A stretch of 64,000 nucleotides of DNA from an uncultured delta proteobacterium (lineage in GTDB: Bacteria > Desulfobacterota > Binatia > UBA9968): assembly GCA_963728565.1 (NCBI GenBank), contig CAVSLC010000023.1, positions 224,001 to 288,000 of the forward strand. The letters are read 5' to 3'. This document shows positions 21,401 to 60,029 of this stretch, piece by piece. The translations under genes were made by a program, and so were the position numbers. A model generated the notes under the pieces. That model was not told the DNA's origin and did not search any database. It saw only the letters and a program-made list of their open reading frames with translations. Within the stretch, counting starts at the first letter, position 1. Each line of letters opens with the position of its first letter.

Positions 21401-21406
21401 CGAGCG

Positions 21407-22270: not shown

Positions 22271-22305
22271 AAGCCGGTGAGCGACCTGCGCTGCAAGACA
22301 ATCCG

Positions 22306-22791
22306 ATGCAATTCTCAACGGTTAAAATAGAAAAACCCGACAACATCAATTTCATTGTCGGTCAGAGCCATTTCATCAAGACAGTTGAAGACATTCACGA
22401 GGCTCTGGTGCAAACCGTGCCTGGAATCAAGTTCGGCTTAGCATTCTGTGAAGCATCCGGTGCGATGCAGGTTCGTTGGAGCGGCACAGACGAGCCCATG
22501 CTCGAACTCGCTAAACGCAACGCTTTGGCGCTTTCCGCCGGACACAGCTTCATCCTATTTCTGGGCCCAGGTTTTTTTCCGCTAAACGTGCTCAACGCCA
22601 TCAAGAATGTCCCAGAAGTTTGTGGGATTTTCTGTGCCACGGCCAATTCTGTCGAAGTCGTCATTGCGGAGACGGAGCATGGGCGCGGCATTATGGGTGT
22701 CATCGACGGCGGCAAAAGCCAGGGGGTTGAAAATGAAGAGGGTATTGCCTGGCGCAAACAGCTGCTGCGCACAATCGGTTATAAGTTGTGA
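22306..22791 (+). CDS. Adenosine-specific kinase family protein (DUF355)
   Basis: GQSHFIKTVED, FGLAFCEASG, CATAN and C-terminal IGYKL. Confidence 0.85.
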   Translation: MQFSTVKIEKPDNINFIVGQSHFIKTVEDIHEALVQTVPGIKFGLAFCEASGAMQVRWSGTDEPMLELAKRNALALSAGHSFILFLGPGFFPLNVLNAIKNVPEVCGIFCATANSVEVVIAETEHGRGIMGVIDGGKSQGVENEEGIAWRKQLLRTIGYKL

Positions 22792-22865
22792 TTGATAAGT
22801 TTCTCGCTTAGGGGACTTGGAAGATACATCTGATCGACTGTTATCCGCCGCGACAAGGAGCTCCT

Positions 22866-23294
22866 ATGGCAATCTTTAAAACGATACTGGCACCAACGGA
22901 CTTTTCCGACCTCTCAGCCAACGGGGTCGGTTACGCGTGCCAGTTGGCCAGGGAGACGGGAGCGGAGCTCATCGCCTTCAATGTGGTGGTATTGGACGAG
23001 AGCAACCGCATCGACAAGCGCGAAATCGAACAACACAAACAGCGGCTCGCCGATTTTGTCGCCGAGAAAGTCCCGAATGCGGGAGCTGGGTTGAAGATGC
23101 GCCAGCTCGTCGATGCCGGCCAACCCTTCGGCGCCATCGTCGACTGCGCCGAGAAGGAAGGCGTCGATCTGATCGTCATGTCCTCGCACGGACGCGGCGG
23201 CTTAGCGCGCATGCTGATCGGCAGCGTCACGGACAAGATTCTACGCGGATCGCCCTGTCCGGTCCTGGTCGTGCCGTTACAAAAAGAAAATTAG
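22866..23294 (+). CDS. Universal stress protein (single domain)
   Basis: ILAPTDFS, DLIVMSSHGRGG and GSVTDKI..SPCPVLVV. Confidence 0.92.
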   Translation: MAIFKTILAPTDFSDLSANGVGYACQLARETGAELIAFNVVVLDESNRIDKREIEQHKQRLADFVAEKVPNAGAGLKMRQLVDAGQPFGAIVDCAEKEGVDLIVMSSHGRGGLARMLIGSVTDKILRGSPCPVLVVPLQKEN

Positions 23295-25778: not shown

Positions 25779-28700
25779 TTAGCCGAGAAATTCTAACCTA
25801 TATCCCTTTCGCCGGTAGTATTTCTTGGCTTCTTCAAAGACCAATACCAGCACCGTGCCGTGGAACGCGAACAAGTAAACATGCCAGGGGAGGGGGGCGA
25901 AGTAGTAGATCTCGGAAAGCGGCGTGTAGAAAAAAACATAGCAAAGCGCCAGCTCCAACAAGATGCCGAGATCGATGAGCGGGTTGGAGATGAAATTGAA
26001 GATGATGTAGTGCCGCTCGAAAAAAGCCGCAACCCATCGGGTGAACGGCGCGATGACGGGACGCTCGAGGCGCACGAGAGATTGAGATAGCAGCATCCAG
26101 ATGAATCTGAAGGGCAGAAGCACTAGCCCGACCGATCAGGGCGAAGAGAGCGCGGACGGCGGTGAATTCAGCGGCGCGTTGAACGTGATACTCGATGTGC
26201 ACTCGCGCGGTGTACCGAGGCGGCCGCCAGTTGGCTATGGCTGCGAGGGCCTCACTGCGACGAAGCGGGTGGAGGAAATTCCAAGAGAAGAGTGAGCTTT
26301 GCCATGACCGTTTGCATAAGACATTGGCAATCTGCGCGGTTACGGTGGGGAAAAAATATGCGGTCAATGTTTGCAGATAAGCCGACGACGCTTCCCCGAA
26401 GTTGAGGCCGGCAGGTGACGGCGGCATCGAGGCAACACTCTGGCCCGGTTTCCAGGCGCCAAGCACCCAACCCATATAAAAGTAAGTAGCGTAGCAGCTA
26501 AGCGCGAGCAGAGTTCCCTGGACAAAATAAGAGCGGAGTATGAACTTGAGCGAAAGCAGCTTTTCGTCGCGGCGCCGTGGCGTTCGCTCCATGATGCCGT
26601 TTTCCGGAGGCTCGATGCCCAAGCCCATCGCCGGAATGAGGTCCGTGCCTACATCGACCGCCAAAACGCCCATGATTGTCATTGCCAGCGGAGTGCCGGG
26701 AAAGAGTACCCAAAAAATGTACGGGTACATTTCCTGCGGGTTACTGTTGAGCACGTAGGCGGCGAATCGTTTGATGTTGTCGAATATCGCGCGGCCCTCT
26801 TCGATGGCAGCGACAATGGAGCTGAAGTTATCATCGGTCAGAATCATGCGCGCGGCCTCTTTGGCGACATCGTTACCGCGCACTCCCATAGCAATGCCGA
26901 TATCGGCCTTCTTCAAGGCCGGGGCGTCATTAACGCCATCACCGGTGACGGCGACGATCTCCCCCATCTGTTTCAGCAAGGAAACGATGCGTAGTTTATG
27001 TTCTGGCGCGACCCGGGCGAAGATGGTTTCCTGTTGGGACAGAATTTCGCGCAACGCGTCATCGTCCAACTCGGAAACTTCGGCGCCTGTGAAACATTTC
27101 AGGGATCCGTTCTGTCCAAGACCGATTTGCCGGCCGATGCTGGCGGCGGTGAGCGGGTAATCGCCAGTGACCATGAGGACGCGGATCCCGGCGGTATGGC
27201 AGTCGCGGATTGCCCCGGGAACCTCGGCCCGCGCCGGATCCGATAGTGCTACCAAGCCAAGGAAGACTAAGTGCGTCTCGATGCATGCTGTCGTGTAAGC
27301 AGCGCCGTTTAATTCCGCTCCTTCTCGGTATGCAAATGCGAGCACCCGCAGGCCGCGCTGTGCCATTGCGTCATTTTCCTCGACAATCCGCCGGCGCTCT
27401 GCGTCCGTTAGCGGGCGGATCTCGCCATTCCAACAGAGCCGGTCGCACTGTTGGAGCGTTTCCAGTGGAGCGCCTTTGACATAAATCGTTGGCTCGCTCT
27501 GCTGATGGGCCTTAATCACGACGCTCATCCGTTTGCGGATCGATTCGAAAGGATTTAAATGCAGGCGTTGATGAACGCCGCGAAGCCCGGCTTTTTCGGC
27601 CAGGCACACTAAAGCTCCCTCCGTGGGGTCGCCGATCACACGGTAATCCGCGCCTTGTTTGCTCAGCCGTGCGTTGTTGCACGTAAAAGCGCAATCCAGC
27701 AAGCGGCGCAAGGTCGGCCAATGAGAGATTGCATCCAAAGAAAGCCTTTGTCCCGAGGTTTTAAATTCTCCTTGCGGTCGATAACCGGACGCCGGAGACT
27801 TGGACGATCTTGCCGTCAACGGCAATTTCGCTGGCCATCATGAGATTTTGCGTAAGCGTGCCGGTCTTATCGCAGCAAATCACCGTAGTGCACCCCAGAG
27901 TCTCGACCGAAGGCAAGCTTTTCACCAGCGCATGGCGCTTGGCCATGCGTTGCACGCCCATCGCCAATGATAATGTCACAGTGGGAAGTAAGCCTTCGGG
28001 CACATTGGCGACAAAAAGACCGATGAAGAAAACGAACGCCGCGAGAAAACTCAGGCCCGCGAAGAGCCAGCCCATAATGAGAAAGGTTAAGCCCAAGCCA
28101 CCGGCGAGGGCGGCGATGGAGTAAACTGTGGCGCGGAGTTGTTTCTGTAACGGGCTTTGTTCGGCTCGAATGTCCCGAGTCAGATTGGCGATTTTACCGA
28201 TTTCTGTATTCATCCCGGTGCCGAAGATCACAGCCCGAGCCCGGCCGCGCAGCAAAGATGTGCCGGCGAAGATGACATTGGGTAGCTCGAGCCAAAGAAA
28301 CTTGCCCGGAATGAGAATCGGCTGATCCGACTTGTAGCGACGTGCCGGCGTGGATTCGCCGGTCAGCGAGGAATTGTCTAGCTCAACTTCGAAGGCCTCC
28401 AGCAATCGTGCATCGGCCGGTACGAGATCACCTTCTTCAACCACGATCAGATCGCCGGGAACAAGCTGGCTTGCATCACACTCCTGGAGGTTGCCGTCGC
28501 GCATCACCTGACAACGCTGGGTGATGAGTTGCTGTAAAATCTCCAAGGAACGGTCGGATTTGTATTCTTGCAGAAATGCAAAAAGGCCGTTCACCAGAAT
28601 CACAACCAAAATGGCAATTCCGAGTTGCGGCAGATCGACTCCGGGAATGAAACAGAGCAGGGCCGCGATCCAAAGCAAGATGGCAAAGAAGCTAAACAGG

Positions 28701-29296
28701 TTGCGCAAGAGCTTAAGCTGCCAGGGATCAACGCGCCACCGTTGCAGCAGGTTAGGTCCGTAATGGCGTAAACGCTGTTGCGCCTCGGTTGACGTCAGCC
28801 CATGCGTGAGATTGGTTTGGAGCTCGAAGCCGATCTGCTCCTGAGTGAGATTCAAATAGGTCGGCAAAGCCGATTGCTGCTCGGCACGCGCGATGATTCT
28901 AAGCACCCGGACCGGATCGCGCTGCGCCAAGAGTTCATCACGGATCGCCGGGAGCAGCGAGCAGATGCGCTGTAAAATCTGCAGATGTTGCGGCGGCTGC
29001 TCGGCTGGCGTTGCAAGAAGCAGGACAATGTTGATTCGTTGATTGTTAAAGGAGAGGCCCTCCGGGGAAATCCCGAGGATCAATTCCGGCGCGGCAAGAT
29101 GATCGATGCGCACATGGGGTACGGCAATTCCGTGACCGATACAACTATAGCGCTCATTCTCGTCCGCTTTTTGTGCTCGGAAATGATTGGCGAGGTCAGC
29201 CACAGACGATCGGCCACAAAGCTCGTCAATGGCTTTGACGAGGGTTCCCTTAAGCCCGAAACCGATCTTTGTTGAGTCCAGGCGGTCGGCAATCAT
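25779..29296 (-). CDS. Cation-transporting P-type ATPase (Na/K-ATPase-like) with N-terminal PTS EIIA domain; frameshifts at ~27800 and ~26120
   Basis: GHGIAVPH (EIIA), LTGES, VANVPEGLLPTVT, DKTGT, KGAP, TGD, GDGVNDAPALKKAD and DVGTD. Confidence 0.88.
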
Positions 29297-29595: not shown

Positions 29596-30024
29596 TTAGG
29601 CGATCGATCCCACATAATGCAGGACGTTGGTCGTGGTGACCAAACCCACCAGGGCTCCATCACTGAGGACGGGCACACAACCGATTTTCTTGTTTGCCAT
29701 GAGCATCGCGGCATCTTTGATCGGCGTGTCGGGCGTCACCGTTATGACCCGTTTTTGCATAATGTCCTTGATCAACTCGTTTTTGAGCAAAGCCGATCTG
29801 CTTTTCTGCTTAAGACCAAAGATACGGTTCGCCGCGGCGCCGATAAGGTCTCGTCCGGAGATCAACCCCACCAACTTGCCATTATCCAAGATCGGAATGT
29901 GGCGAATGCGACCAAGAGAAATTACGTCACTAGCCAGATCTAGAGTATCGTTGGGGGCCAAAGTCACGGGCGAGCCCATCATAATCTCCTTTACGGTCCC
30001 GTTCTTTTGATTTTTATTTTTCAT
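29596..30024 (-). CDS. CBS domain pair protein
   Basis: IRHIPIL..GKLVGLIS and KIGCVPV..GLVT. Confidence 0.9.
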   Translation of the reverse strand: MKNKNQKNGTVKEIMMGSPVTLAPNDTLDLASDVISLGRIRHIPILDNGKLVGLISGRDLIGAAANRIFGLKQKSRSALLKNELIKDIMQKRVITVTPDTPIKDAAMLMANKKIGCVPVLSDGALVGLVTTTNVLHYVGSIA

Positions 30025-30099
30025 ATGAGCGCTCCTCTCAGACGTGTTGGAGGCGACGCCGGAACAATATTTCGGCGCCTCCCCTTAGCGAAGAATTGT

Positions 30100-30114
30100 G
30101 CACTGTCCGTGCCA
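30100..30114 (-). promoter_or_regulatory. Sigma-54 -24/-12 promoter
   Basis: TGGCACGGACAGTGC. Confidence 0.7.
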
Positions 30115-30331
30115 ATCGCAGCCGGTGCTTCTTCTCGGAATTCCCGTTGGCGCCAGCGCCCGCGAGAAGTCTAAACGGCAAGAATATTCACGCTAGTTCC
30201 GCATGAATAAGAAGAGCGCGGCAGAAAAAGTTTGCATCGCCTTTGGTCGACCGCGGACCTATCTTTTGCGGTTCATCGCAGATCGCTCGAAACACCGCCC
30301 TTATGCGGCATGCCTAAGGGGCAGCGCTAAC

Positions 30332-30790
30332 TCACTGAGCTGCAATCGTTGAGTTTGCCGGCTCCGTAAATGGGTAAGGACTAGCGGACGTGCTTATTGA
30401 TCCGCGAAGGTTTGTCGCCCTCCCACTGGTGCTCACAACGCAGCGCAAAGCAGAATCGCGGTATTGAGCCGTTGACTGGCACGTAATGCCGGGACCTTGA
30501 GGCACTCCACAGGAACTGGTCTCAGTAACATTGTCGCCTCTCCAATCGAAAATTTCCGCAACAATGATACGATTTACGCTATCGGTATTAGTGGCGAAAC
30601 AAGCTGCAGTAAAGCCAGCGGGTTCATGAATGGCTGCAGTTGAGAGATGTTCAAATCTCTGGAGATGACCGGCTGTCGTTTGAAACCCGGAGCCGTCTGG
30701 CCCAACAGTCGAGGGACTTTCGGCCCGAACGCCTGCGACAAAAATAAGCATGAGAATAGTCTTGGCGATGATGGCGTAGAACAACATCAT
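30332..30790 (-). CDS. Hypothetical secreted protein with four Cys
   Basis: AGGAGG RBS and a signal-peptide-like N-terminus. Confidence 0.5.
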   Translation of the reverse strand: MMLFYAIIAKTILMLIFVAGVRAESPSTVGPDGSGFQTTAGHLQRFEHLSTAAIHEPAGFTAACFATNTDSVNRIIVAEIFDWRGDNVTETSSCGVPQGPGITCQSTAQYRDSALRCVVSTSGRATNLRGSISTSASPYPFTEPANSTIAAQ

Positions 30791-30866
30791 AAATCCTCCT
30801 TTGTGCCCATCGACCGTCATTATCTTTTTTTGATTCCTGCACTCACGCAGGCAATTAGAAATCCCA

Positions 30867-31256
30867 TTACAGATCATAGATGGGCGTCCGAATCGCCACG
30901 TGCTCGCCCATGGCGATAGCGCTGACTATGTCGGCACGGCTGACGATTCCGATAATTTTGCCGCCGTCCGTAACCGGCACCCGCTTGATAGCGTGGGTGA
31001 TCATGAGCTGGGCAATCTCTTCAACAGCGGTATCCTCCCGGACACTGACAACTTTTCTGCTCATGATCGATTTGGCATCCTTGCCTTTTTTTGCCACGAT
31101 ATCCGCTTCCGAAACGATGCCCAGGATTTTACCCTGTTCATCTACGACTGGGGCACCGCTGATCTGATTTTTGATCAAGATCATGGCTAAGTTCCTGACC
31201 TTAGTGGTCGGGCTTATGGTAATGATGTCGCGGGTCATAACATCTTTGGCGAACAT
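30867..31256 (-). CDS. CBS domain pair protein
   Basis: ISGAPVVD..GIVSEADI and IKRVPV..GIVSRADI. Confidence 0.9.
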   Translation of the reverse strand: MFAKDVMTRDIITISPTTKVRNLAMILIKNQISGAPVVDEQGKILGIVSEADIVAKKGKDAKSIMSRKVVSVREDTAVEEIAQLMITHAIKRVPVTDGGKIIGIVSRADIVSAIAMGEHVAIRTPIYDL

Positions 31257-34067: not shown

Positions 34068-35456
34068 TCATCTGCCGTCGCGGACTGCGAGCTGGCCTTT
34101 TCGTGAAGCGTCAATCGACTCTCCGAGAATTCTCGCGGCCTCCTGGGGCGCGTGAAAGCCACTGGAGTTTTCCGCCTCGACGAAGTCGAGATAGAACTGC
34201 GCCTTCCGCTGAAAGTTGCGCGCGGTATCGAGCTCGGCCTCGGCCTTACCGGCGGCTTTGGTTTTTTTCAAGTCATCGATCAAGGCGATGAGGGCGTCCA
34301 TTGCGAGATTGCGTAGGCGCAACGTCCTTTCTTGAATCGTCTCCACCCGCGCTTTCAATTCCTGCTCGGCAATTTTATGGCAGGTCTGGCAAGCGCGGTT
34401 GATGTTCAACAGCGGGCTACGCACATGATGGTCGCTGATCTTGAGCGCGCCTTCGCGCTTATAGGGCATGTGGCAGTCAGCGCAGGCTACACCGGAGCGC
34501 GCGTGAATCCCCTGGCTCCAAAGCTCGAATTCCGGGTGCTGCGCCTTGAGCACCGGCGCGCCGGTTTCGGCGTGCCTCCAATCCTGGAATTTCTCCTCGT
34601 CATAGTAGGCCAGGATCTCGTCGACTTTAATGCCTTTGGCCCAAGGATAGACGAGTCGCTTCTCGGCTCCCCTGAAGTAGTATTCGACATGGCATTGCGC
34701 GCAAACGTAGGAGCGCATCTCCTGGCGCGTCGCCTGCACGTTGACATCGTAATTCTTGACTCCCTGGCTCGTTTTGAAGCTGGCGATGCCTTCGATAAAA
34801 CCCGGCCGGGTGATTCTGAGCTGCATGGTGTCCGGAGCGTGGCAGTCGATGCAGGCGACGGGATGGTTGACGAGTTTGCGCGCATCTGAAAACGGCATCT
34901 GGTTCAGTTTTTCGAAGCCTTTGATCAAGTCGCCGCTGCCGGCTCTTTTATAGGGGAGATAGACCGACGCATGGCAGTGCAGGCATGTGCCGGGCTGCTT
35001 TACCGCGATCTGCCGCTCGGTATAGGTTTGATCGTCGAGCATGTATGCGTGGCCGCGCTCTTCTCTAAAATCTCGGGCAAACGCGTATCCGGCCCACATA
35101 ATTCTCAGCCGCGGGTCTTCTTCGAGCTTGGATTGCGCGACTACCGAGCGCGGATCGGTTTGGCTAGGGGTCTTCGGCAGCGCTTCACTGCCGCCAAACC
35201 GTGTGCGCACCTGGTCCACAGTGCGACGATAGTCGTCATACTGAAGCGGAAAGTTTTTCCCCCACATCGCCGGATCTTCAGTCTCGTCGTTGAGCTCGAC
35301 CACGCGGTAAAATGGGTTGCGCGCCTCCTGCTTGCGTTCCATGATGTTCACCAGCAGCGCAACCGCAAGTACCGCGATCGCCGCCGCGGCAACGGCCGTA
35401 CCGGCCACCAGCTTCGCACGACTCGGTTGACGGTTTTTCTCTTCGATTGAAGCCAT
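34068..35456 (-). CDS. nrfA: Ammonia-forming cytochrome c nitrite reductase, CxxCH-type
   Basis: MWAGYAF, ERGH, five hemes (CLHCH, CIDCH, CAQCH, CADCH, CQTCH), KAQHPEFE and AENS.GFHAP. Confidence 0.93.
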   Translation of the reverse strand: MASIEEKNRQPSRAKLVAGTAVAAAAIAVLAVALLVNIMERKQEARNPFYRVVELNDETEDPAMWGKNFPLQYDDYRRTVDQVRTRFGGSEALPKTPSQTDPRSVVAQSKLEEDPRLRIMWAGYAFARDFREERGHAYMLDDQTYTERQIAVKQPGTCLHCHASVYLPYKRAGSGDLIKGFEKLNQMPFSDARKLVNHPVACIDCHAPDTMQLRITRPGFIEGIASFKTSQGVKNYDVNVQATRQEMRSYVCAQCHVEYYFRGAEKRLVYPWAKGIKVDEILAYYDEEKFQDWRHAETGAPVLKAQHPEFELWSQGIHARSGVACADCHMPYKREGALKISDHHVRSPLLNINRACQTCHKIAEQELKARVETIQERTLRLRNLAMDALIALIDDLKKTKAAGKAEAELDTARNFQRKAQFYLDFVEAENSSGFHAPQEAARILGESIDASRKGQLAVRDGR

Positions 35457-35464
35457 GCCTGCTC

Positions 35465-35920
35465 CTATTGCGGATGCCCTACCGAACCGTGACAGCGGAT
35501 GCAGCTCATGCCGGCGCTTTCAGCATGGCCGCCGAGAATCGCCTCGCTGAGTTCCTGGTGACAACCACGGCATCGAGTCTCCGTGATTTGCCGGTTTCCC
35601 GGGGTAATGCCGATGGGCTCATGAAACCATCCGGTGGTGAACGCCCAAGAGTGGCGCGCGCCGTTCGCTGACTTGTTTAGATACTTGGCAATCGATCCGA
35701 CCGGCGTATGACAGTCGTTACATACCGCAACGGATCGATGGCTGGAGCGGATCCAGCCGTCGAACTGTTCCTGCATCACATGACAATTTGCACAGGCTTG
35801 GGGATTGTCGGTCAGGTAGGATGCGCCTTTGGCGTACACGAAGGTAAAACCGCCGATGCCAACCGCGAGCCCGACCGCGACACTTAGAAGCATCAGCAAA
35901 AGATTCTCTGATCGCATCAC
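35465..35920 (-). CDS. nrfH: Cytochrome c nitrite reductase small subunit
   Basis: N-terminal TM helix, CANCHVM, CNDCH, CRGCH, CIRCH and VGH. Confidence 0.93.
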   Translation of the reverse strand: MMRSENLLLMLLSVAVGLAVGIGGFTFVYAKGASYLTDNPQACANCHVMQEQFDGWIRSSHRSVAVCNDCHTPVGSIAKYLNKSANGARHSWAFTTGWFHEPIGITPGNRQITETRCRGCHQELSEAILGGHAESAGMSCIRCHGSVGHPQ

Positions 35921-35950
35921 GAACTGCGGCGCCCGCGAAACTAGCCGAGA

Positions 35951-36298
35951 CTATTGGAGATCGGCGATTTTTTTGATTCCATCGCCCCAATCTTCAACTT
36001 TAAAGTCCGAGAACGAAAGCACGATCGGCTCTTTTTCCTCGATCACGATCATCCGGTTATTATACTTCATTAGAAATGAAATCTTGAGCAATAACGAGTC
36101 GTCGCGAAATTCGAGAAGCGTGACCTTTTGCTCGAAATAGGAGTATTGCTTCTCACGCAATATCTCTTCTACTCGCTTACGTGTAAGTGTCTCTTTAGGA
36201 GCTAAAAAGCCGTCCATTTTCCCTCCCCATTCCTCGTCGCCGGCGTTCTTGAGTTGCGATCTCGACATCCTTCCTCCAGCGAATTCATGCCTGCTCAT
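35951..36298 (-). CDS. Hypothetical protein
   Basis: Fills the gap between the CBS gene and nrfH on the same strand; start uncertain. Confidence 0.5.
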   Translation of the reverse strand: MSRHEFAGGRMSRSQLKNAGDEEWGGKMDGFLAPKETLTRKRVEEILREKQYSYFEQKVTLLEFRDDSLLLKISFLMKYNNRMIVIEEKEPIVLSFSDFKVEDWGDGIKKIADLQ

Positions 36299-36716
36299 CT
36301 TCTAACCGGTCGAGTAAAAATCGCAGGACGTCAACATAGGTGACGATGCCCACGAGGCCTTCGCTTTCATCAACGACAGGAATGCCGCCGATCTTTTCTT
36401 CGATCAACAGTTCAACCGCTTCGCGGAGATCGTCCTCAGGCGACATTGTCAGCGGCTTGGCGGTCATTATGTCGGTGACATTGGCTTTGAGGGCTCTGGC
36501 CCGTTCCGCCGGCTTAAGCAGCGACGATTGAGCAAGGAAAGAGCGAATATCGCGATCCGTGACGATGCCAATGAGCTGTTTACTTTCGACGACGGGAAGC
36601 TGTCGATAGTGGTTCTCGTACATTAGCTCTTCCGCCTGGCCTACCGTATCCGAAGGACTCACTGTCAACGGATCCTTGGACATCACATCGAATATTTTCA
36701 TCGAGTTAGCTTTCAT
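36285..36716 (-). CDS. CBS domain pair protein
   Basis: GIVTDRDI and KIGGIPVVD..GIVTYVDV. Confidence 0.9.
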   Translation of the reverse strand: MKANSMKIFDVMSKDPLTVSPSDTVGQAEELMYENHYRQLPVVESKQLIGIVTDRDIRSFLAQSSLLKPAERARALKANVTDIMTAKPLTMSPEDDLREAVELLIEEKIGGIPVVDESEGLVGIVTYVDVLRFLLDRLEDEQA

Positions 36717-36746
36717 GATGATTCACCTCATCACGATCCGTAGAGA

Positions 36747-36761
36747 GCACAGGTTGTGCCA
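36747..36761 (-). promoter_or_regulatory. Sigma-54 -24/-12 promoter
   Basis: TGGCACAACCTGTGC upstream of the CBS-nrfHA unit. Confidence 0.75.
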
Positions 36762-36914
36762 AGTACGTGGAAAAATGCTCCGTAAAGTCGTCCGAGGGGC
36801 GGCACCGAGGCGCCAAACTTTCGCTCCTTTGAGAAAATACTTGCGACAAATTCTATTCGATGCGAAAGCAAAAAACTCCAGATAAGGAATAGATACATTT
36901 TCCGATCTCACCGG

Positions 36915-36929
36915 CGGCATAGTTATTGC
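36915..36929 (+). promoter_or_regulatory. Sigma-54 -24/-12 promoter
   Basis: CGGCATAGTTATTGC. Confidence 0.7.
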
Positions 36930-36972
36930 CCCATTTTCTTCATAGCTCCCGAGTCGAGTTTCAGGAGGGCAT

Positions 36973-37434
36973 ATGGAATCACTAAAGAAAATTCTAGCGC
37001 CGACGGACCTGTCGGACCTTTCGTGCGCGGGCCTGCGTTATGCGCTGGAAATGGGGCGGTCATGCACGGCAGAGGTGATCGTCTATCACGTCATCGACTT
37101 AGGCGATCACTGGATCAAGCGCGAAGATTCCGGGCCAGTCCGGGAAATGCTTGAGCGCCATAGACGCATGCTGAACAAGTTTTTATGGGAGAAGTTCCGG
37201 GAAGAGATGATTCTAACCGAAGTCCGGCAGGTGGTTGAGTTCGGGGGCGCGTCCGACAATATCGTCGAAAAGGCCGAAAGCGAGCAGGTTGACAGGATCG
37301 TTATGTCAACCCACGGCCGAACCGGCATTGATCGCTTGCTGATGGGTAGCGTTGCCGAGAAAGTTATCGCCCGGGCCCCATGTCCGGTCCTGATCGTGCC
37401 GGTGCACAAGCGTAACATCGCAAGGGCTGCCTAA
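36973..37434 (+). CDS. Universal stress protein
   Basis: ILAPTDLS and THGRTG..GSVAEKV...APCPVL. Confidence 0.92.
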   Translation: MESLKKILAPTDLSDLSCAGLRYALEMGRSCTAEVIVYHVIDLGDHWIKREDSGPVREMLERHRRMLNKFLWEKFREEMILTEVRQVVEFGGASDNIVEKAESEQVDRIVMSTHGRTGIDRLLMGSVAEKVIARAPCPVLIVPVHKRNIARAA

Positions 37435-37445
37435 TTCGTCGCAAC

Positions 37446-38261
37446 TCATCGCGCGTGATGGCGGTAAACAAAAAAATAGACCAACGCTACCATCACGCCG
37501 CCGCCGAAAATATTCCCCAATGTGACGGGCACCAAGTTAGAGACTAAGGCGCCCCATGTTAGCAGGTCCGCATTTGCCACGTCAGATCGGTCCCGTAACA
37601 AAATCCCGAGCGGGATGAAATACATGTTGGCTACGCTATGCTCGAAGCCTGCGGCGACAAAGGCAGAAATCGGGAAAACGATAGCGAATATCTTATCGAC
37701 AACACTCCGGCCGGCGAGCGCCAGCCAAACGGCAAGACACACCAGGATGTTGCACAGTATTCCCTTGAAGAACGCCTCAGCAAAAGGAAGTGCCGCCTTG
37801 GCATAAGCTATCTTTACTGCGTTTTCCCCTACCGATCCTGCGCCGGCTTCCGGGTGATTCGACAGGTAGACGAGAACCGCCAGCCCCAACGCGCCGATGA
37901 AATTCGCGCAGTAGATAATCAGCCAGTTGCGCATCAACTCCCATGAGCTTATGCGCCGACTGGCCCAGGCCATGACCATAAAGTTATTGCCGGTGAAAAG
38001 TTCCGCGCCGGCGACCACGACCAGAATCAAACCGAGTGAAAAGGCTATACCGCCGAGGATTCGGCTAAGCGCAAACCCAAGGCTAGCGTCGGCGGTGATG
38101 AAGGTAAAGTAAAGCGCCCCGAATCCGATAAACCCGCCGGCGAGCACGCCAAGCGTTGCCTGTGAAAGCAGCGGCAGGCGCGCTTTGGTGACGCCGATGG
38201 TTTCGACCCGCTCGGCGATTTCCTTGGGCGCATAAGCGTCGAAACCGAAGATTTCACTCAT
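37446..38261 (-). CDS. Formate/nitrite transporter (FNT family)
   Basis: GAELFTGN, GILCNILVCLAVW, GFEHSVANM and VTLGNIFGG. Confidence 0.93.
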   Translation of the reverse strand: MSEIFGFDAYAPKEIAERVETIGVTKARLPLLSQATLGVLAGGFIGFGALYFTFITADASLGFALSRILGGIAFSLGLILVVVAGAELFTGNNFMVMAWASRRISSWELMRNWLIIYCANFIGALGLAVLVYLSNHPEAGAGSVGENAVKIAYAKAALPFAEAFFKGILCNILVCLAVWLALAGRSVVDKIFAIVFPISAFVAAGFEHSVANMYFIPLGILLRDRSDVANADLLTWGALVSNLVPVTLGNIFGGGVMVALVYFFVYRHHAR

Positions 38262-39865: not shown

Positions 39866-41789
39866 GTGGAGAAAAAAGCACAAGATTTGTCGATCGCGTA
39901 CATCATCGCGGTAATGGCGCTGATGTTTATCGCGCAGTATTTCTTGATTGCCAAGTCGGTGGAAACTCTTTCCTACAGCCAATTCAAAACTCTGCTCAAG
40001 AATAATCAGGTCAGCGATATCGTCATTCGCGAAAAGTACATTAACGGCTCGATCCAGCCCGAGGCGGTCAAAGACATTCTCGCGCCCCAACGAATCAACG
40101 AATTGGGCGAGCGCGCCAAAAAGCCGGTGCCGTTTGAGGTCGTCCGGGTCGAGGACCCTCGTTTGATGTTGGAGCTCGAAGAGGCGGGGACTCCTTTCAA
40201 AGGGGAGACCACAAGCGATTGGCTTTCAGTTGCCCTCTCCTGGCTCATGCCGATTGTCATCTTCTTTGTCTTGTGGAGCCTCCTATCCAACCGCATGGGC
40301 AGGGCCGGCGGCGGCTTGATGCAGATCGGCAAGAGCAAGGCGAAGGTATACATCGAAAAAACCACCGGTGTCACATTCGCCGACGTTGAAGGCATCGACG
40401 AAGCGGAAGAGGAGTTGATCGAAATCGTCGAATTCTTGAAGCACCCGGAGAAGTATCAGCGGCTCGGCGGTCACCTGCCGAAAGGAGTGCTGCTGGTGGG
40501 GCCGCCAGGCACGGGTAAGACGCTGCTAGCCCGGGCCGTGGCCGGCGAGGCCGGTGTGCCGTTCTTCAGCATCTCCGGCTCCGACTTTGTTGAAATGTTC
40601 GTCGGGGTCGGCGCCGCGCGTGTGCGAGATCTGTTCGCTCAAGCCGCAGCGAATGCGCCGAGCATCATTTTCATCGATGAGCTCGATGCGCTTGGAAAGG
40701 CGCGCGGCATCAGTATGCTGAGCAGCCACGACGAACGCGAGCAGACGCTCAACCAGCTGCTCGCGGAGATGGATGGCTTCGATCCCAACAGAAATGTGAT
40801 CATGATGGCTGCAACCAATCGACCGGAAATTCTCGATCCTGCGCTGTTGCGCCCCGGGCGATTTGATCGACAGGTGCTGGTAGATCGGCCGGATGTGAAG
40901 GGCCGTGAGAAAATTCTGCTGCTTCACGCTAAGAAGATCAAACTGGCGCCCTCAGTGGACCTCGCGTTGATCGCGGCAAAGACCCCAGGGTTCGTTGGCG
41001 CCGATTTGGCGAATATCGTTAACGAAGCGGCGTTGTTGGCTGCGCGGCAGAGCAAGGATGCCGTGGAAGACAACCGATTTCGACGAAGCCATCGAGCGGG
41101 TGGTTGCCGGCCTGCAGAAAAAAAGCCGGGTCATGAGCCCGAAGGAAAAGAAAACCATAGCCTATCATGAGTCCGGTCATGCCTTGATCGCGGAGCTGGT
41201 TCCTGGGGCCGATCCGGTCTCCAAAATATCCATCATCCCACGCGGCATCGCCGCGTTGGGTTATACGCAGCAAACACCGACCGAAGACCGCTATTTGATG
41301 ACTCGGTCGGAACTCCTGGCGCGCATTCATGTGCTGCTCGGCGGGCGCGTTGCCGAAGAAATGGTTTTCAACGATGTCTCGACCGGAGCCCAGAACGATT
41401 TGCAGCGGGCAACGGAAATCGCCCGGACGATGGTTACGCAGTTCGGCATGAGCGATAAATTGGGGTTAGTCTCGCTCGAGGGACCGCGGACGCCGCTATT
41501 TCTCCCTGTGCCGGTTCAGAGCGCAAAAGACTACAGCGATGACACGGCGAGGGTGATCGATGCCGAAGTCAAGGAGATCCTTACGGACACCCACCACAAA
41601 GTGCAAGAGATTTTGGCGGCGCACCGCGCGGCTCTCGAAGAGCTTGCCCAATTGCTGTTGAAAAAAGAGGTAGTCGAAAGGCCGGCGCTGCAGGCGATTC
41701 TGAAGGTCATCAGCATCGATCAGGCGAGGGAAAGAAAGAAATCGGGTGATTTGACTAAGGATGAAAATTCCAAATTAAATACCAAATAG
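39866..41789 (+). CDS. ftsH: ATP-dependent zinc metalloprotease FtsH; frameshift at ~41070
   Basis: [17 protein letters not shown] ([20 protein letters not shown]); HESGH in the second frame. Confidence 0.92.
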
Positions 41790-53033: not shown

Positions 53034-53963
53034 ATGGAACGCCCCGGTCTTACTCGCTTCGCATGGCTCTCGATCGCCGCGGCCTTGGCTACCATTGCTC
53101 TGAAGGCTCTGGCGTATTTCGTCACCGATTCCGTAGGGCTGTTGTCGGATGCACTGGAGTCATTGGTGAATCTGGCTGCGGCTCTGATGGCGCTGGCAAT
53201 GCTGACTGTTGCCGCTCGACCGCCTGATGAGATTCATGCCTTTGGCTACAGCAAAGCCGAATATTTCTCCAGTGGCGTTGAAGGGGCGCTGATTGTCCTC
53301 GCCGCGGCGATCATCGCCTGGACGGCGGTGCCACGGTTGATTACGCCACAGCCCTTGGAGCAAGTCGGTACCGGTCTGGCGGCATCGATCATAGCGGCGG
53401 CGCTCAATTTTTTGGTTGCCCGCCATTTGCTCAGCGGCAGCAAACAGTATCGCTCCATCACACTGGAAGCGGATGCCCATCACCTGATGACCGATGTCTG
53501 GACGTCGGCCGGTGTGGTTGCCGGAATCGCGATTGTCGCCCTGACCGGCTGGACGCGTCTCGATCCGGTGATTGCGCTGTGTGTCGCCGTTAATATTTTA
53601 TTGATGGGAGTGCGACTGCTGCGCCGGTCGTTGCTTGGACTTTTAGACACGGCTTTGGGTCGCACCGAAGAAAAACTTATAAAAGGAATCCTCAGCCGAT
53701 ATGCCGGTCAGAATCTTTACTATCATGCGCTGCGCACGCGGCAGGCAGGAGTGCGGTCGTTTATTTCCTTCCATGTGCTGGTGCCGGGAGAATGGACCGT
53801 TCAGCAAGGGCATGATCTGGTCGAACGACTCGAGCGCGATATACGCACCGCGATTCCGGGAGCCACCGTGTTTACTCACCTCGAGCCGATCAATGACCCG
53901 TCAGCTTGGCAGGACTTAACGCTTGATCGGACAGATGATGTAATCCGCAGCAAAGGTAGCTGA
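53034..53963 (+). CDS. Cation diffusion facilitator (FieF-like)
   Basis: [24 protein letters not shown] and THLEP. Confidence 0.92.
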
Positions 53964-54053
53964 TGCAAAATCAAAGGATCATGGTTTAATGAAAGCGCGT
54001 AGTAAAATCATAAAGCCTAGATTGCGTTCCCATAAACAAAGGAGAAGCCGTTT

Positions 54054-54206
54054 ATGCCTGACTGGTTGTGGTTCGTCGCTTTTTTCGTGGCCTACATTGT
54101 GCTGATGCGCTGGGTGCTGCCTTATCTGGGCGTGCGAACTTGAATGGCCGGTGACGTCGAGTCTCGACGCACTAGCAACAAAGAGCAACGCACAGCGGAA
54201 AAGTGA
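54054..54206 (+). CDS. Candidate membrane micro-selenoprotein, 50 aa with U30 (or a 29-aa peptide if TGA is a stop)
   Basis: AAGGAG RBS; MPDWLWFVAFFVAYIVLMRWVLPYLGVRT-TGA(54141)-MAGDVESRRTSNKEQRTAEK*; hairpin 17 nt after the TGA. Confidence 0.6.
54150..54173 (+). promoter_or_regulatory. SECIS-like hairpin
   Basis: GGUG(A bulge)CGUCGA-[GUC]-UCGACG-CACU. Confidence 0.6.
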
Positions 54207-54453
54207 TGCCGGGAAGCATCGAGATTAATGGAAATCAGGTCCAGCAGACACCGAGGTCGCCTTGCCCGGTGGAATAAGTTCTCATTCCAGCAGTTCCTAG
54301 GATCGATTTAAAGAGTCAGTTGCAGCGAATCGTATTCTGATGAGCATGGAATCACGGCTCCTCATTTTCATAAATGCAAATTAGTCTGACCTTTTTCGCA
54401 GGTCTGGCAAGCCCTGACGGCTAAATTCCTCAAACCGGAAACAGAGTCAGTGG

Positions 54454-54468
54454 TGGCATATCGGTTGC
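54454..54468 (+). promoter_or_regulatory. Sigma-54 -24/-12 promoter
   Basis: TGGCATATCGGTTGC. Confidence 0.75.
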
Positions 54469-54550
54469 TCTTCTCTAAGCCGTGACCCTGGTTGCGCTCG
54501 AAGTTTGCACAAACGCAACAACACTGGGTCGGTGCAGGAGGAGAGATAGT

Positions 54551-55828
54551 GTGAAATCTTACCTGGGTATGGGCCGCAGTCGGGTGTTGCTGGTTTGCGG
54601 TGCGCTGGCGATGTTTGCGGCTGCTTTGTGGCTGTGGCTCCGCCCCGCCACCGTGACCACCGCCGAAGTGAGCGCCCGCGAGATCAGTCCAGCTATACAC
54701 GCGGTCGGGACGGTGGAAGCCAGGGTCCTGGTTCAGCTGGCCGCCAAGATCGGCGGGCGAATCAGCAGAATGCATGTCGATCAGGGTGACACCGTGCGAG
54801 CCGGCCAGATCCTTGCTCAACTGGAGGATTCTGAATCGACTGCGGAGGTTCAACGCGGCGCTGCGAACTTGGAACGAGCCAAGCTTGCTTTACATGCGCA
54901 GCAAGCAGCCCTGCTGCGGGCGCAAGCAGCACTCTCCGCCGCTGAAGCAATCGTCCTCAAAGCGCGCGCAAACCGTGCGCTTGCTTATGCCAATGCGGCG
55001 CGCTGGGGAAAGCTCGAGGCCGCGGAACTCGTAGCCAAGATCGAGCTCGATGAACGGGCTAACGCCGCCGAATTGGCTGATGCTGAGTTAAAAAGTGCCG
55101 AGGCGCTGCGCGAAGCGGCAGCCAAAGAGGCCGCGGTTCAGCAAGTCGCATTGAAGATCGTTCCCCATGACATCGCCGCTGCAGCGGCTGCCCTTGCTTC
55201 GCTTCAGGCTAGAAAAGCCGACACGGTAATCGCCAGTTCGACCGACGGTTATATAGTGAGCCGGGAAGTTGAAACCGGCGGCGCGGTCAATCCCGGAACG
55301 CCAATTCTCAAGCTCGCTGATCCGCGCACCATCTGGGCTACCGTGTATGTCGACGAGCGCGAAGCAGGTTCTCTCGAGATCGGAAACGCAGCCGACATCA
55401 CGTTGCGCTCGATGCCGGAGCGGGTCTTGACTGGCAAGGTCGCGCGCATCCGGCGCGAAAGCGATCGCGTTACCGAGCAGCTCACGGTGGACATAAGCTT
55501 CGATACACCGCCGGATCAATTGCGCCTCGGCCAGCAAGCAGAGGCGCTAATCCGAGCGGCGCCGCGAAATGTTATTGCCATGTCCGATGCAGCAGTTGTG
55601 CAGTCCGCGAGGGGAGCCGGCGCCTGGATCGTTGTCGCTGGCCGCCTGCGCCTCCGGCCAGTGCGGTTAGGGGCAGTCGATCCCTCCGGCTGGGTTGAAG
55701 TACTGCAAGGACTTTCTGTCGGCGATCACGTGGTGGTCGCTCCCGGCAAATTCTCAGATCCTAAAAACGAGGGGCGGCGCGTCATCGCGCAGCCGCGATC
55801 CTCAACCATCGCGGTCGCCAGCCAGTAA
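54551..55828 (+). CDS. Efflux periplasmic adaptor (HlyD/MFP family)
   Basis: N-terminal TM helix, KIGGRI...VDQGDTV.AGQ lipoyl-like half, long coiled coil and VEVLQGL..GD.VV. Confidence 0.88.
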   Translation: MKSYLGMGRSRVLLVCGALAMFAAALWLWLRPATVTTAEVSAREISPAIHAVGTVEARVLVQLAAKIGGRISRMHVDQGDTVRAGQILAQLEDSESTAEVQRGAANLERAKLALHAQQAALLRAQAALSAAEAIVLKARANRALAYANAARWGKLEAAELVAKIELDERANAAELADAELKSAEALREAAAKEAAVQQVALKIVPHDIAAAAAALASLQARKADTVIASSTDGYIVSREVETGGAVNPGTPILKLADPRTIWATVYVDEREAGSLEIGNAADITLRSMPERVLTGKVARIRRESDRVTEQLTVDISFDTPPDQLRLGQQAEALIRAAPRNVIAMSDAAVVQSARGAGAWIVVAGRLRLRPVRLGAVDPSGWVEVLQGLSVGDHVVVAPGKFSDPKNEGRRVIAQPRSSTIAVASQ

Positions 55829-55832
55829 ACTC

Positions 55833-57029
55833 ATGAATCTTGCGATTCGAGACGTAAGATACCGTTTTGGCCGCTTTCTTCTGACCGCCTTCGGCCTTGG
55901 TTTGCTGCTTGCGACCGTCATGGCAATGGGCGGAATTTACCGGGGCATGGTGGAGGACGCCCTCAGCATCGTGCGCGCCCCTGACGCTGATCTGTGGGTG
56001 GTGCAGAAAGACACCAATGGTCCGTTCGCCGAGACCTCAAGGGTGCCCGATGATCTCCATCGCGTGATGCGCGCGGTCCCGGGGGTGCGCGAAGCCAATG
56101 CGATCGCATTTCAGACCATTCAGCTCGACTATGAAAACAAGTCGCTCCGGGTGCAGTTGATTGGCTACCGACCAGGAAATTTAGGGGCGCCCTCAGCGGT
56201 GGCGGCAGGCCGTCCTCTCACAACCCACCGCTATGAGATGGTGTTGGACCGCAAGGCGGGAATCCCCGTCGGTGCACGCCTGCCACTGGGAAGGTCGACC
56301 TTTACCGTGGTCGGCTTAACGGAGGGCATTGTTTCGAGTTCCGGCGATTCGACGGCATATGTATCGCTGCAGGACGCCCAGGAACTGCAGTTTCTCAAGG
56401 GCAACGAGGCGGTGCGCAACGAGCGGGCGCGGCTTGTCGCCGACTTACAATCAAACCCAATACTCACCGGAGTCCCGGCGGCTTCGCTGTTTTCGATAGT
56501 GCAGAACACCAATTTGGCCAACGCCATACTCGTGCGGATCGAGCCTTGGGCTAATGCTGAGGAAGTCGCTCGACGAATCGAGCGCTGGAACCATTACCGC
56601 GCGCTGACCACGGCGGAGCAAGAAGATGTATTGGCCAAGAATGTGATCGAACGGGCCCGCCAGCAAATCATGCTTTTTCGCATTATCCTGCTCGCAGTAT
56701 CGACGGTGATCATCGCGTTGATTATCTACACAATGACGATAGAGAAGACGCGCGATATAGCGACATTGAAGATCATTGGCGCTCCGAACATGAAAATCGT
56801 CAGTTTGATTCTACAAGAGTCGGTCGCCCTTGGGGTGCTCGGGTATGGATTCGGCGCGGCGCTCATCAATCTGGTCTATGAGTATTTTCCGCGCCGGGTT
56901 GCGATTCTTGCCTTTGATCAGGGCGTCCTGTTCGGCATCGTTTTGGCGATCTGTGTCATCGCAAGTATTCTCGGGATAAGACGCGCTCTTGGCATTGATC
57001 CGACCACCGCGATGGGAGGGGGCGCGTAA
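55833..57029 (+). CDS. ABC transporter permease (MacB/FtsX type)
   Basis: ADLWV and [14 protein letters not shown]; four-TM layout. Confidence 0.9.
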
Positions 57030-57754
57030 TGGCCGTGTTGGTAGCGGAGCAGATCGTTAAAATCTTCGGTCAGGGCGAGGGCCAAGTCGCCGCTTTGAAG
57101 GACGCCTACGTTTCCATCGAGGCGGGAGAGATGGTTGGCTTGATGGGGCCGAGTGGTTCGGGCAAGACGACGCTTCTGCGGGCTCTCTCATTAATCGATC
57201 CGCCGACCAGCGGTCAGATCACCATCGGTAATGAGCTGGTGTTTCAAGGCTCCCGAGTGCTGACGGATGATAGGCAGCTACGCCGCAGGCGCATGGGAAT
57301 CATCTTCCAGGCCTACAATCTCATTCCGTTTCTAACCTCAGTGGAAAACGTCGCGCTTGTGCTGACGCTCAACGGAATTTCGAGAAACGAGGCGTTGGCG
57401 CGCGCGCACAACTTGCTCAACCGCCTCGAACTGGGGCATCGTGCCGACACCTACCCAGCGACGCTTTCAGGCGGGGAGCAACAGCGGGTTGCCGTCGCCC
57501 GAGCTGTCATCAATGAGCCAGTGATGATTCTTGCGGATGAACCGACGGCAGCCCTCGACACCGAACGAGGCAAGGCGGTGATGGATCTGCTCCGGCTGCT
57601 TGGCCGCGTGCAGCGAGCAGCCGTGATCGTTGTGACACACGATGAAAGAATGATCGAAGGCTTTGATCGCATCTATCATATGATTGACGGCCGGATCACG
57701 AACCATCTGAGTTCGGCAGAGCGCCAAGCGACGGCGGATGAAATCCATGCGTGA
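57029..57754 (+). CDS. ABC transporter ATP-binding protein
   Basis: [23 protein letters not shown] and VTHD. Confidence 0.93.
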
Positions 57755-58917: not shown

Positions 58918-59439
58918 ATGGATTGGCTACGTAGAGAAGAGTGGCCCTGGTGGCAGGCGGGTTTATTACTCGGCCTGCTAAACATGGCGGCATTTTTCAC
59001 GGCGGACTATTACCTGTCGGTTTCGACGACTTTCTCGCGCGCCGCGGCAATGGTGGTTGGACTGGTCGCACCGGAGCATGTGGCGGCAAACGCATACTGG
59101 CAGAAGGTTAAGCCGATAGTCGATTGGCAATTCATGCTTGTTCTGGGAATTCCACTCGGCGCCTATCTGGCCGCGCGACTGAGTCAAAAACCCGTCGAGT
59201 TCACCGGATCGCTTCCCGATATGTGGGTCAGCCGATTCGGTACGAGCAATGCGCAGCGTTGGGTTGTCGGTATATTGGGCGGTATTTTCGTCGGTTTCGG
59301 TGCGCGCCTGGCCGATGGCTGAACCAGCGGCCACGCTCTCAGTGGAGGGCTTCAAATGGCCGTGAGCAGTTGGATCTTTCTGATCGCGATGATGATCTCG
59401 GGCACGATCATGGCGCGGCTAATTTTCCGGAGGGTGTAG
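58918..59439 (+). CDS. YeeE/YedE-family half transporter A, candidate selenoprotein (173 aa, U135)
   Basis: Reading through TGA 59320-59322 gives FGARLADG-U-TSGHALSGGLQMAVSSWIFLIAMMISGTIMARLIFRRV*, restoring the GCTSGH motif and the last TM helix. Confidence 0.88.
59329..59361 (+). promoter_or_regulatory. SECIS-like hairpin A
   Basis: GGCCA..GCUCUC-[AGUG]-GAGGGC..UGGCC; loop 18 nt after the UGA. Confidence 0.65.
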
Positions 59440-59441
59440 CT

Positions 59442-60029
59442 ATGGGTCCATTAGAAATTACCGGTCCAGCGCGTCTTGCGCTCGGACTCGCAACCGGAAT
59501 TCTCTTCGGTTTCATTTTACAAAAGGCACAGGTCACCCAGTATCAAAAGATCGTGTCTTTCTTTCGTTGGAGCGACCTGACTGTCCAGAAAGTCATGTTC
59601 GCGGCGATACTCGTCGGTATGGTCGGGGTGTATGCGCTGCATGATCTTGGTTTGGTCAATCTTCACATCAAGCCGACCTTGCTTGGCGCCAATATCCTTG
59701 GCGGCCTGATTTTCGGCATCGGCATGTTGCTCTTGGGCTTTTGACCCGGCACCTGTGCTGCGGCCTTCGGCGAAGGCCGTTTAGATGGTTTGTTTCGCGG
59801 CGTTCTGGGCATTTTGATCGGCGCGGGTATTTACTCGGAAATCTATCCGTTGATTCAGGATAATCTTCTTAAGCTCGGCGATTTCGGTAAATTGACCATT
59901 CCAACCGTCCTAGGGGTCAATCCATGGTTCGTGATCATACCGTTTACGATCATCGTCAGCGGAATTCTCCTGTGGATGGACCAGATTGATAAGCGAAAGA
60001 CGAGTAACGCAAGAGAGTTAACACGATAA
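59442..60029 (+). CDS. YeeE/YedE-family half transporter B, candidate selenoprotein (195 aa, U101)
   Basis: GGAGG RBS; FGFILQK..; GGLIFGIGMLLLGF-TGA(59742)-PGTCAAAFGEGRLD continues in frame into ORF 59790..60029, restoring the G(Y/F)CPGT motif. Confidence 0.88.
59760..59780 (+). promoter_or_regulatory. SECIS-like hairpin B
   Basis: GCGGCCUUC-[GGC]-GAAGGCCGU, 9-bp stem, loop 24 nt after the UGA. Confidence 0.7.

Follow-up and report, generated by a model that had tools for sequence, protein, structure and literature searches.

Bacterial selenoprotein genes with an intragenic selenocysteine insertion sequence (SECIS), as set out in the parts of PMC13188914 used here, carry an in-frame UGA and a stem-loop within the coding region, and the model for this element has a G in the first two loop positions, at 16-37 nucleotides (nt) from the UGA. 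Cys-containing homologs and a second Cys nearby belong to the same picture. We analysed a stretch of 64,000 nt from an uncultured delta proteobacterium (contig CAVSLC010000023.1, positions 224,001 to 288,000), which is called the window below, and in which a very small gene at 54054-54206 has a TGA in frame at codon 30. Comparison shows that this gene belongs to a large, widespread and unnamed bacterial family of 50-90-residue proteins with the pattern …(L/M)(N/M)RWVLPxxG(V/I)xT-[C/U]-M-(S/A)-x-x-C, and the family resembles the described selenoprotein genes in all of the features above. We put the probability at roughly 0.85 that UGA-30 is read as selenocysteine (Sec) and that 54054-54206 is a selenoprotein gene. 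The microprotein differs from the listed bacterial selenoproteins in being far smaller (about 50-77 residues), in its membrane anchor and in having no thioredoxin-like fold.

Two listed families come closer than the rest. YeeE/YedE (TsuA) proteins with a GUxSG motif are a listed selenoprotein family (PMC13188914 Table 1); they are also membrane proteins, their Sec also replaces a conserved Cys, they are found in the same genome region, and they share the theme of sulfur/selenium handling. However, they are polytopic transporters with curated models, and they have no sequence relation to the microprotein. TsoA (LULAxC, NF045695; also listed in PMC13188914) is nearest by motif only, with U-x3-C there and U-x4-C here. 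The microprotein had no NCBIfam match even at E≤10.

Likeness in architecture is found further away. SELENOK and SELENOS are small proteins with one transmembrane helix and a disordered cytosolic tail that holds Sec, and the microprotein is like them in these respects, but their Sec lies near the C-terminus, their SECIS is in the 3' untranslated region and they are proteins of the eukaryotic endoplasmic reticulum; no homology is expected. Small efflux-pump subunits of the AcrZ type are likewise single-helix proteins of ~50 residues encoded beside pump genes, but they have no Cys/Sec motif, and the neighbourhood of the microprotein gene is not constant.

The gene lies on the forward strand. A Shine-Dalgarno sequence AAGGAG (54039..54044) stands 9 nt ahead of the start codon ATG at 54054, both read directly from the sequence. 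The first 29 codons (54054..54140) encode MPDWLWFVAFFVAYIVLMRWVLPYLGVRT, which consists of an N-terminal transmembrane helix and a conserved juxtamembrane motif LMRWVLPxLGVxT. Residues 4-22 are taken as one transmembrane helix because their Kyte-Doolittle mean, the maximum over 19 residues in this protein, is 2.01. The in-frame TGA, the proposed Sec codon 30, is at 54141..54143; it is conserved among relatives and a Cys is aligned with it in homologs. After it, 20 open codons starting MAG (54144..54203) encode a hydrophilic, charged tail, MAGDVESRRTSNKEQRTAEK, and the terminal stop TGA is at 54204..54206. A SECIS-like hairpin of 10 bp with one bulged A lies at 54150..54173, and was assessed by fold, by covariation and by geometry against controls. 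Its strands are GGUG(A)CGUCGA and UCGACGCACU, and the G of the apical loop GUC comes 17 nt past the UGA. An earlier note on this DNA had described just such a gene, with an AAGGAG ribosome-binding site, a single transmembrane helix, a TGA at codon 30, 20 further codons starting MAG and a hairpin whose G-leading loop lies 17 nt past the UGA, and each of these was found again at its place.

The relatives that carry TGA came from a genome scan with 172 pattern matches, 104 of which encode a relative; the best 80 matches, in 79 loci, were kept. Together with the window this gives 81 intact copies, two loci (L011 and L043) holding two copies each, and the nucleotide alignment comprises 80 copies, L078 being left out as too short. 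Most loci, 54, belong to Acidobacteriota (Pyrinomonadaceae, Blastocatellia, Chloracidobacterium, Bryobacterales, Solibacteraceae, Terriglobia and others). Nine come from metagenome-assembled genomes labelled 'Deltaproteobacteria' or uncultured delta proteobacterium and eight from Candidatus Binatia, with two each from Syntrophobacteraceae and Chloroflexota and one each from Thermodesulfobacteriota, Verrucomicrobiia, Armatimonadetes and an alphaproteobacterial metagenome-assembled genome.

In all 81 intact copies the codon at the site, 13 codons past the start of the LMRW motif, is TGA, and it is TGA in 80/80 aligned copies. The codon just before it always encodes Thr but is written in three ways (ACT 45, ACC 24, ACG 11), and the terminal stops of the aligned copies are mixed (TGA 33, TAA 26, TAG 19). 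The peptide is conserved over 16 residues before the site and 5 residues after it; among 37 full-length rows Y14, L17-P23, G26 and T29 are invariant. Of the 75 copies that have a canonical start, 68 carry a Shine-Dalgarno 4-mer at -18 to -4; among 5000 random positions it was found at 543. The window copy shares with two relatives (L001 and L002) a 6-nt gap in the nucleotide alignment, and its loop stands only 17 nt from the UGA because of this deletion; it is also without the Ser-Cys pair that most relatives carry past Sec. Compared with its closest relative, L001, it is near-identical from ~65 nt upstream of the gene to ~45 nt past the stop and unrelated beyond. Since the similarity ends just outside the gene, the microgene is considered a self-contained unit.

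Several individual loci deserve mention. In L011 two microgene copies (6471-6623 and 10001-10156) bracket an HlyD-MacB(-ABC) exporter operon, and an acetate kinase gene follows the second; L043 also has two copies, at 4504-4707 and 6472-6669. The copy in L044 (10001-10103) is frameshifted: from its shifted reading, …LPRLGSHLNGEFL*, the …T-TGA-ATG… stretch can still be recognised in another frame. Either the sequence has an error here or the copy is decaying.

Relatives with a sense codon at the site came from a search of 1.84 billion representative proteins with profile A3, which was built from 37 full-length read-through sequences. The search gave 656 matches at E≤1e-3, of which 44 were at E≤1e-10. 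The residue at the site was classified in 149 of the 150 matches listed (of 656), one protein that ends at the site (P0027) having been filtered out. Cys was found in 94/149, and 33/149 proteins end exactly at the site; the others have Trp (15/149), Leu (3/149), Gly (2/149) or Ser (1/149), and 1/149 is frameshifted. These counts include two rows placed by eye after the regular expression had anchored wrongly, P0073 as Cys and P0134 as Trp. The Cys forms show the family motif as …(L/M)(N/M)RWVLPxxG(V/I)xT-C-MSGxC, and the next Cys stands at +5 in 81 of the 93 Cys forms found by the regular expression. When the Sec-form profile was compared by hhalign with a 40-row profile of Cys forms, the Sec column fell on the Cys column with 99.87% probability (E 1.5e-31); Sec was written as C in the profile, so the identity of that column is built in and the flanking columns carry the score. 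With the Cys-form profile, 945 proteins were found at E≤1e-3 in a collection of 5.8 billion clusters. Among the 120 matches listed of these 945, those with a name are all called 'hypothetical protein'; Pfam domains are absent, and where an organism is given it belongs to Planctomycetes/Planctomycetota or Acidobacteriota. A FastTree tree of 273 rows (79 Sec, 194 Cys) over 31 columns needs at least 8 changes between Sec and Cys, compared with 68 for shuffled labels, and is too poorly resolved for the direction or the number of origins.

For the Cys forms the hairpin was judged from the peptide that it encodes. When the Cys-form profile was run by hmmsearch over the six-frame translations of all loci, none of the 82 matches was a Cys form, so the encoded motif was used as a proxy for the hairpin. 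This motif, xExR at +8/+10, was seen in 59 of the 79 Sec forms, whereas a single one of the 195 Cys forms has it. Because it is tied to the Sec forms in this way, the hairpin goes with the TGA, as is expected of a SECIS.

The Trp and Gly records bear on the explanation that the UGA is read through with no Sec at all, either by near-cognate insertion of Trp or Cys or under a genetic code with TGA as a sense codon. Trp (15) or Gly (2) at the site in database proteins is what such reading would give. These records (P0005, P0030, P0031, P0034, P0039, P0040, P0041, P0109 and others) keep the hairpin-encoded motif of the TGA forms, and for this reason we read them as mistranslated TGA: most simply, they would be products of automatic pipelines using translation tables 4 or 25, and likely an artefact that hides Sec codons. 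Moreover, the relatives with a sense codon have Cys and not Trp. In the window TGA is an ordinary stop, because 24 of 46 Pfam-supported open reading frames (ORFs) end in it (TAA 12, TAG 10; a 47th runs off the window end). We regard this explanation as the least probable of those considered, with hardly any weight.

Past the TGA the DNA has the character of coding sequence in the same frame. In 80/80 copies no stop interrupts frame 0 for at least 16 codons (median 26), whereas frames +1 and +2 reach 15 codons in 55/80 and 28/80 copies. Across the 80 copies synonymous variation is seen at +2 Ala (GCT 22, GCG 16, GCC 13, GCA 5), at +4 Ser (TCG 26, TCC 22, TCA 5) and at +5 Cys (TGC 53, TGT 17). 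Past the site the consensus reads M-(A/S)-x-S-C; 70/80 copies have the Cys at +5. Judged by these patterns, the DNA past the TGA is very probably translated in frame.

Translation of the tail could in principle also begin anew. If the TGA were a true stop, the product would be a 29-residue membrane peptide, and ribosomes re-initiating at the ATG that follows would translate the tail as a micro-ORF of its own (MAxSC…). That codon is indeed ATG in 76/80 copies. Also, the 29-residue form is already in databases: when proteins were first searched for the 50-residue read-through, 20 of the 28 matches were exactly 29 residues long and 3 more stopped at the same Thr, to which the 33 of 149 classified proteins mentioned above may be added. 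Two of the 28 continue past the site, where they have Ser or Trp followed by MSGSC…, and 3 look frameshifted. Some termination at UGA is expected even in real selenoprotein genes. On the other side, the codon after the TGA is ATA (twice), AGT or GCG in the remaining 4/80 copies, and because it is not ATG there the tail is not a separately initiated ORF in these. TAA or TAG would serve translational coupling equally well, and neither occurs in the 80 copies; in the Cys homologs one uninterrupted ORF runs through, with Cys in the place of the TGA, and the hairpin-encoded motif is tied to the TGA forms. A true stop with re-initiation is therefore improbable in our estimate, at a few chances in a hundred.

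The hairpin itself is supported by comparison among the relatives. RNAalifold with 80 rows gave a 5-bp core with compensatory changes in 4/5 pairs. For a structure of seven pairs that we specified, 89.9% of 556 cells were paired, against 24-42% when the partner columns were slid, and double changes were found in 6/7 pairs (62 cells). None of 500 shuffles reached the observed paired percentage or covariation score, a test to be read with the caveat that related sequences can exceed shuffles without any structure. Compensation is directly visible in stems such as GUCGA/UCGAC, which is replaced by GCCGC/GCGGC, GUCGG/CCGAC, AUCGA/UCGAU or GUUGA/UCAAC. These changes alter the encoded amino acids and keep the pairing, while the stem codons are nearly without synonymous variation (GTC 60, GAG 61, TCT 55); therefore it is the RNA and not the peptide that is constrained there.

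The geometry of the hairpin fits the bacterial SECIS model, and as a candidate SECIS it is much more regular than the controls. Loops start with G (GTC 54, GGA 7, GGC 5), and the distance from UGA to loop is 23 nt in 65 copies, with a range of 17-23 nt for the family. Under a strict definition (distance 17-24 nt, loop of at most 4 nt) the geometry is present in 69 of 79 family copies, compared with 31 of 952 TGA stops and 138 of 5000 random TGAs. A loose bacterial-SECIS rule takes in 76 of 79 family copies. For the window hairpin by itself, folding is no better than chance, and its significance comes from the comparison. Single-sequence folding statistics were dropped as evidence, as they were not significant. 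The comparative checks proposed in the earlier note have turned out in favour of its claim: homologs have Cys or TGA at the site, the hairpin is conserved with compensatory changes, and instead of mixed TAA, TAG and TGA at the site, which it had named as refuting, the opposite was seen, the mixture being confined to the terminal stops.

A conserved hairpin behind a short ORF could also be read as a regulatory device. In that case the ORF would encode a leader peptide, pausing or termination would take place at the RF2-specific UGA, and the hairpin would be an attenuator of the next genes; tnaC is the model for such control. The short ORF, the invariant UGA and the conserved hairpin, often upstream of co-directional genes, agree with this, and if read-through depends on Se, the expression of downstream genes could in principle respond to the selenium status. 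But no terminator-like or promoter-like site was found in 53850-54650 and no U-tract behind the hairpin, and the peptide is conserved on both sides of the site like a functional protein. Downstream genes differ widely among loci (the window and L001 share the microgene and not what follows), and the Cys homologs have no stop at the site. We give the leader peptide a very small chance, slightly below that of re-initiation.

Decoding of UGA as Sec has a probable precedent within the window. A scan for in-frame TGAs revealed two adjacent genes for half-size YeeE/YedE/TsuA-like transporters on the forward strand. The first, at 58918-59436, has its TGA at 59320-59322 ('ADG-U-TSGH'), and the second, at about 59480-60026, at 59742-59744 ('LGF-U-PGT'). 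When read through, both are matched across the TGA by TsuA/YedE models (E 1e-12 to 8e-15); half-size proteins can be expected to score below the full-length cut-offs, and these do. A hairpin follows each of the two TGAs. This implies that the organism decodes Sec, since two genes of the YeeE/TsuA type carry in-frame TGA. The microgene had been called a third selenoprotein, which fits with these two genes at 58918-60026; they are probably the other two that were meant.

With UGA-30 read as Sec, we propose the following course of events. Ribosomes would start at the ATG behind AAGGAG; the hairpin, 6-30 nt past the UGA, would act as a bacterial SECIS and recruit SelB with Sec-tRNA, and because of this recruitment the UGA would be read as selenocysteine and translation would go on to the second TGA. 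The product would have ~50 residues with one N-terminal transmembrane helix, N-terminus out and C-terminus in, with Sec ~8 residues past the helix at the cytoplasmic face of the membrane, followed by a charged and probably disordered tail. In most members Sec or Cys and the Cys five residues on would form a redox-active pair (selenenylsulfide or disulfide). This pair would react with an oxidised or electrophilic partner, for which a disulfide or persulfide, sulfane sulfur and soft metals are examples, and thioredoxin would recycle the pair. The window copy, like L001 and L002, would depend on an external thiol because its second Cys is lost. When selenium is scarce, termination at the UGA would leave only the 29-residue anchor.

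The predicted topology follows from the charges of the flanks. In the Sec forms the mean number of K+R is 0.01 in the N-terminal flank against 4.87 in the C-terminal flank, and by the positive-inside rule the N-terminus would face out, with Sec and the tail in the cytoplasm. A search for longer relatives found only four, and so few long relatives are weak evidence. Three of them (P0102, P0276, P0277) join a Cys-form microdomain by a linker to a complete WCGPC thioredoxin (TIGR01068 1e-30 for P0102), and the fourth, P0278, has a Cys-form microdomain with a rhodanese domain. The thioredoxin fusions suggest recycling by thioredoxin.

Gene neighbours were taken from the 77 upstream and 73 downstream nearest ORFs and from 80 second neighbours, and no neighbour is constant across loci. 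The window gene is located between a metal exporter gene of the CDF type upstream (53034..53963, forward; Pfam Cation_efflux 3.5e-39, ZT_dimer 1e-17) and an exporter downstream (54482..57754, forward) that by Pfam comprises an HlyD-family adaptor, a MacB/FtsX-type permease and an ABC ATPase (ABC_tran), so that the Pfam matches of the flanking genes bear out the position between a CDF metal exporter and an ABC exporter given by the earlier note. Two patterns were seen. In Acidobacteriota a DUF302 gene is directly downstream in 19 copies and directly upstream in 3, in total 22/80, and ArsR-family regulators are within two genes in 9 loci. TauE, multicopper oxidase, CDF, VIT1 and OEP/HlyD efflux genes are also near the Acidobacteriota copies. 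In Binatia, 'delta' metagenome-assembled genomes and Chloroflexota, an HlyD-MacB-ABC exporter adjoins in the window, L003, L004, L008 and L010 and on both sides in L011, an RND pump adjoins the microgene in L007, L024 and L055, and P-type ATPases, Na/Ca exchangers, acetate kinase and phosphorylase-like genes are near. RND or MacB-type pump genes are beside 13 of the 81 copies. To the Acidobacteriota pattern also belong rhodanese-domain proteins, which are within two genes in 9 loci (CoA-disulfide-reductase-rhodanese, MBL-rhodanese, tandem rhodanese and rhodanese-YgaP).

The neighbouring DUF302 proteins (L062 10265-10678, L016 10248-10694 and 20 further loci) have no signal peptide, are taken as cytoplasmic and have two conserved Cys, in GACNP and LPCN. 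For the domain DUF302 no function is known; PMC5037610 notes it in the sox clusters of sulfur oxidisers. The ArsR-type regulator of L062 scores below cut-off against the models of BigR (sulfite-sensing) and TsoR.

The earlier note had suggested a redox or metal sensor or an accessory subunit of a transporter, and each of these is a possible role. What the neighbourhoods and the thioredoxin fusions favour is chemistry at the membrane, either thiol/selenol redox or sulfur/metal. From these we infer a membrane-tethered selenol/thiol pair (U/C-x4-C) that would work in sulfur, oxidative or soft-metal stress chemistry and be recycled by thioredoxin. A fuller picture can be drawn only tentatively, and we give it a little less than even odds: the microprotein would be the Sec branch of an unannotated, widespread family of single-pass microproteins beyond the 119 catalogued families, with SELENOK/SELENOS-like architecture and common in soil Acidobacteriota and Binatia, and its thioredoxin-recycled membrane selenol would pass sulfane sulfur or soft metals to or from DUF302 and rhodanese proteins and exporters.

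A number of results weigh against reading UGA-30 as Sec or against the function proposed. In related DNA the loose SECIS rule also takes in 290 of 952 TGA codons that are ordinary stops, and of 5000 TGA triplets picked at random it takes in 1501; the fold z-score of the window hairpin is -1.1, with z values between -1.1 and +0.06. In Rfam the whole window gave no match at gathering thresholds, and a scan of 54000-54500 by E-value gave chance snoRNA matches only. The window copy is atypical: a second Cys is missing, and with 17 nt between UGA and loop it is close to the shortest distance that the model allows. TGA in 80/80 copies does not equal 80 independent events, because the relatives are phylogenetically related. 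A few database relatives, seen as protein records only, have Leu (3) or Ser (1) at the site. No selA, selB, selD or tRNA-Sec gene was found in the 64-kb window or in 60 scanned loci. The functional reading rests on variable neighbourhoods and four fusion proteins, and the four fusion records may be either true fusions or merged neighbouring genes.

Comparison with known families gave no counterpart. For the window protein, Pfam-A and NCBIfam (release 20.0) held 0 families at E≤10, and 17 Sec and Cys relatives had only chance-level matches in Pfam/NCBIfam, apart from the fused thioredoxin of P0102. There is no matching entry among the 119 prokaryotic selenoprotein families of PMC13188914 Table 1. 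The PDB sequence search reached at best E 0.26 (profile A4) and 1.3 (profile A3), both chance matches of transmembrane helices. In the ESM Atlas one unnamed 'hypothetical protein' cluster was found (score 0.85, 123 members, commonest phylum Planctomycetota). A full-text literature search found no description of the family; the supplementary tables of deep-Sep and BSepDB, which lie outside such a search, might list a candidate. The SAO system that bioRxiv 10.1101/2022.07.06.499078 describes, in the part consulted, is a different system. The recoding mechanism proposed here is the standard bacterial one, and what is new is the protein family.

The family may have been overlooked because its ORF stops at 29 residues and its Cys forms are unannotated. 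The relevant part of PMC12013277 (deep-Sep) states that current methods may miss selenoproteins without Cys-containing homologs, and according to the section of PMC13188914 on SECIS-independent methods, these start from Cys-containing protein queries. In the protein collections searched, those of the 29-residue and other forms that have a name are called 'hypothetical protein', a blind spot of annotation, and methods based on long ORFs or on Cys queries cannot find the family. If UGA-30 is indeed read as Sec, the catalogue would gain a membrane-anchored microprotein selenoprotein family in abundant soil lineages (Acidobacteriota, Binatia), unusual in how small its members are, in being anchored in the membrane and in how abundant it is in soil phyla. 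For the hundreds of Cys forms, to which no function is assigned, the Sec forms would show which residue is the catalytic one throughout the family. With its 50 residues, only one Sec, a defined SECIS and fusions to thioredoxin, the peptide would suit the study of selenol chemistry at membranes, and the gene would offer a compact natural SECIS cassette.

Elsewhere in the window two genes are split into overlapping ORFs in different frames: a P-type ATPase with N-terminal PTS_EIIA_2 on the reverse strand (25834-27825 and 27761-29296) and FtsH on the forward strand (39866-41170 and 40995-41789). Frameshifts, pseudogenes or errors of assembly may be the cause. The window as a whole resembles a stress/dormancy island (18978-23294, 29596-31256 and 34068-38261): it has several tandem universal-stress-protein (Usp) genes, many CBS-domain proteins and Hsp20, together with a cytochrome c nitrite reductase of the NrfA/NrfH type and a transporter for formate/nitrite. 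Near the microgene in Binatia-type loci, genes of similar kinds occur (Usp, CBS-CoA-binding, phosphorylase-like and P-type ATPase).

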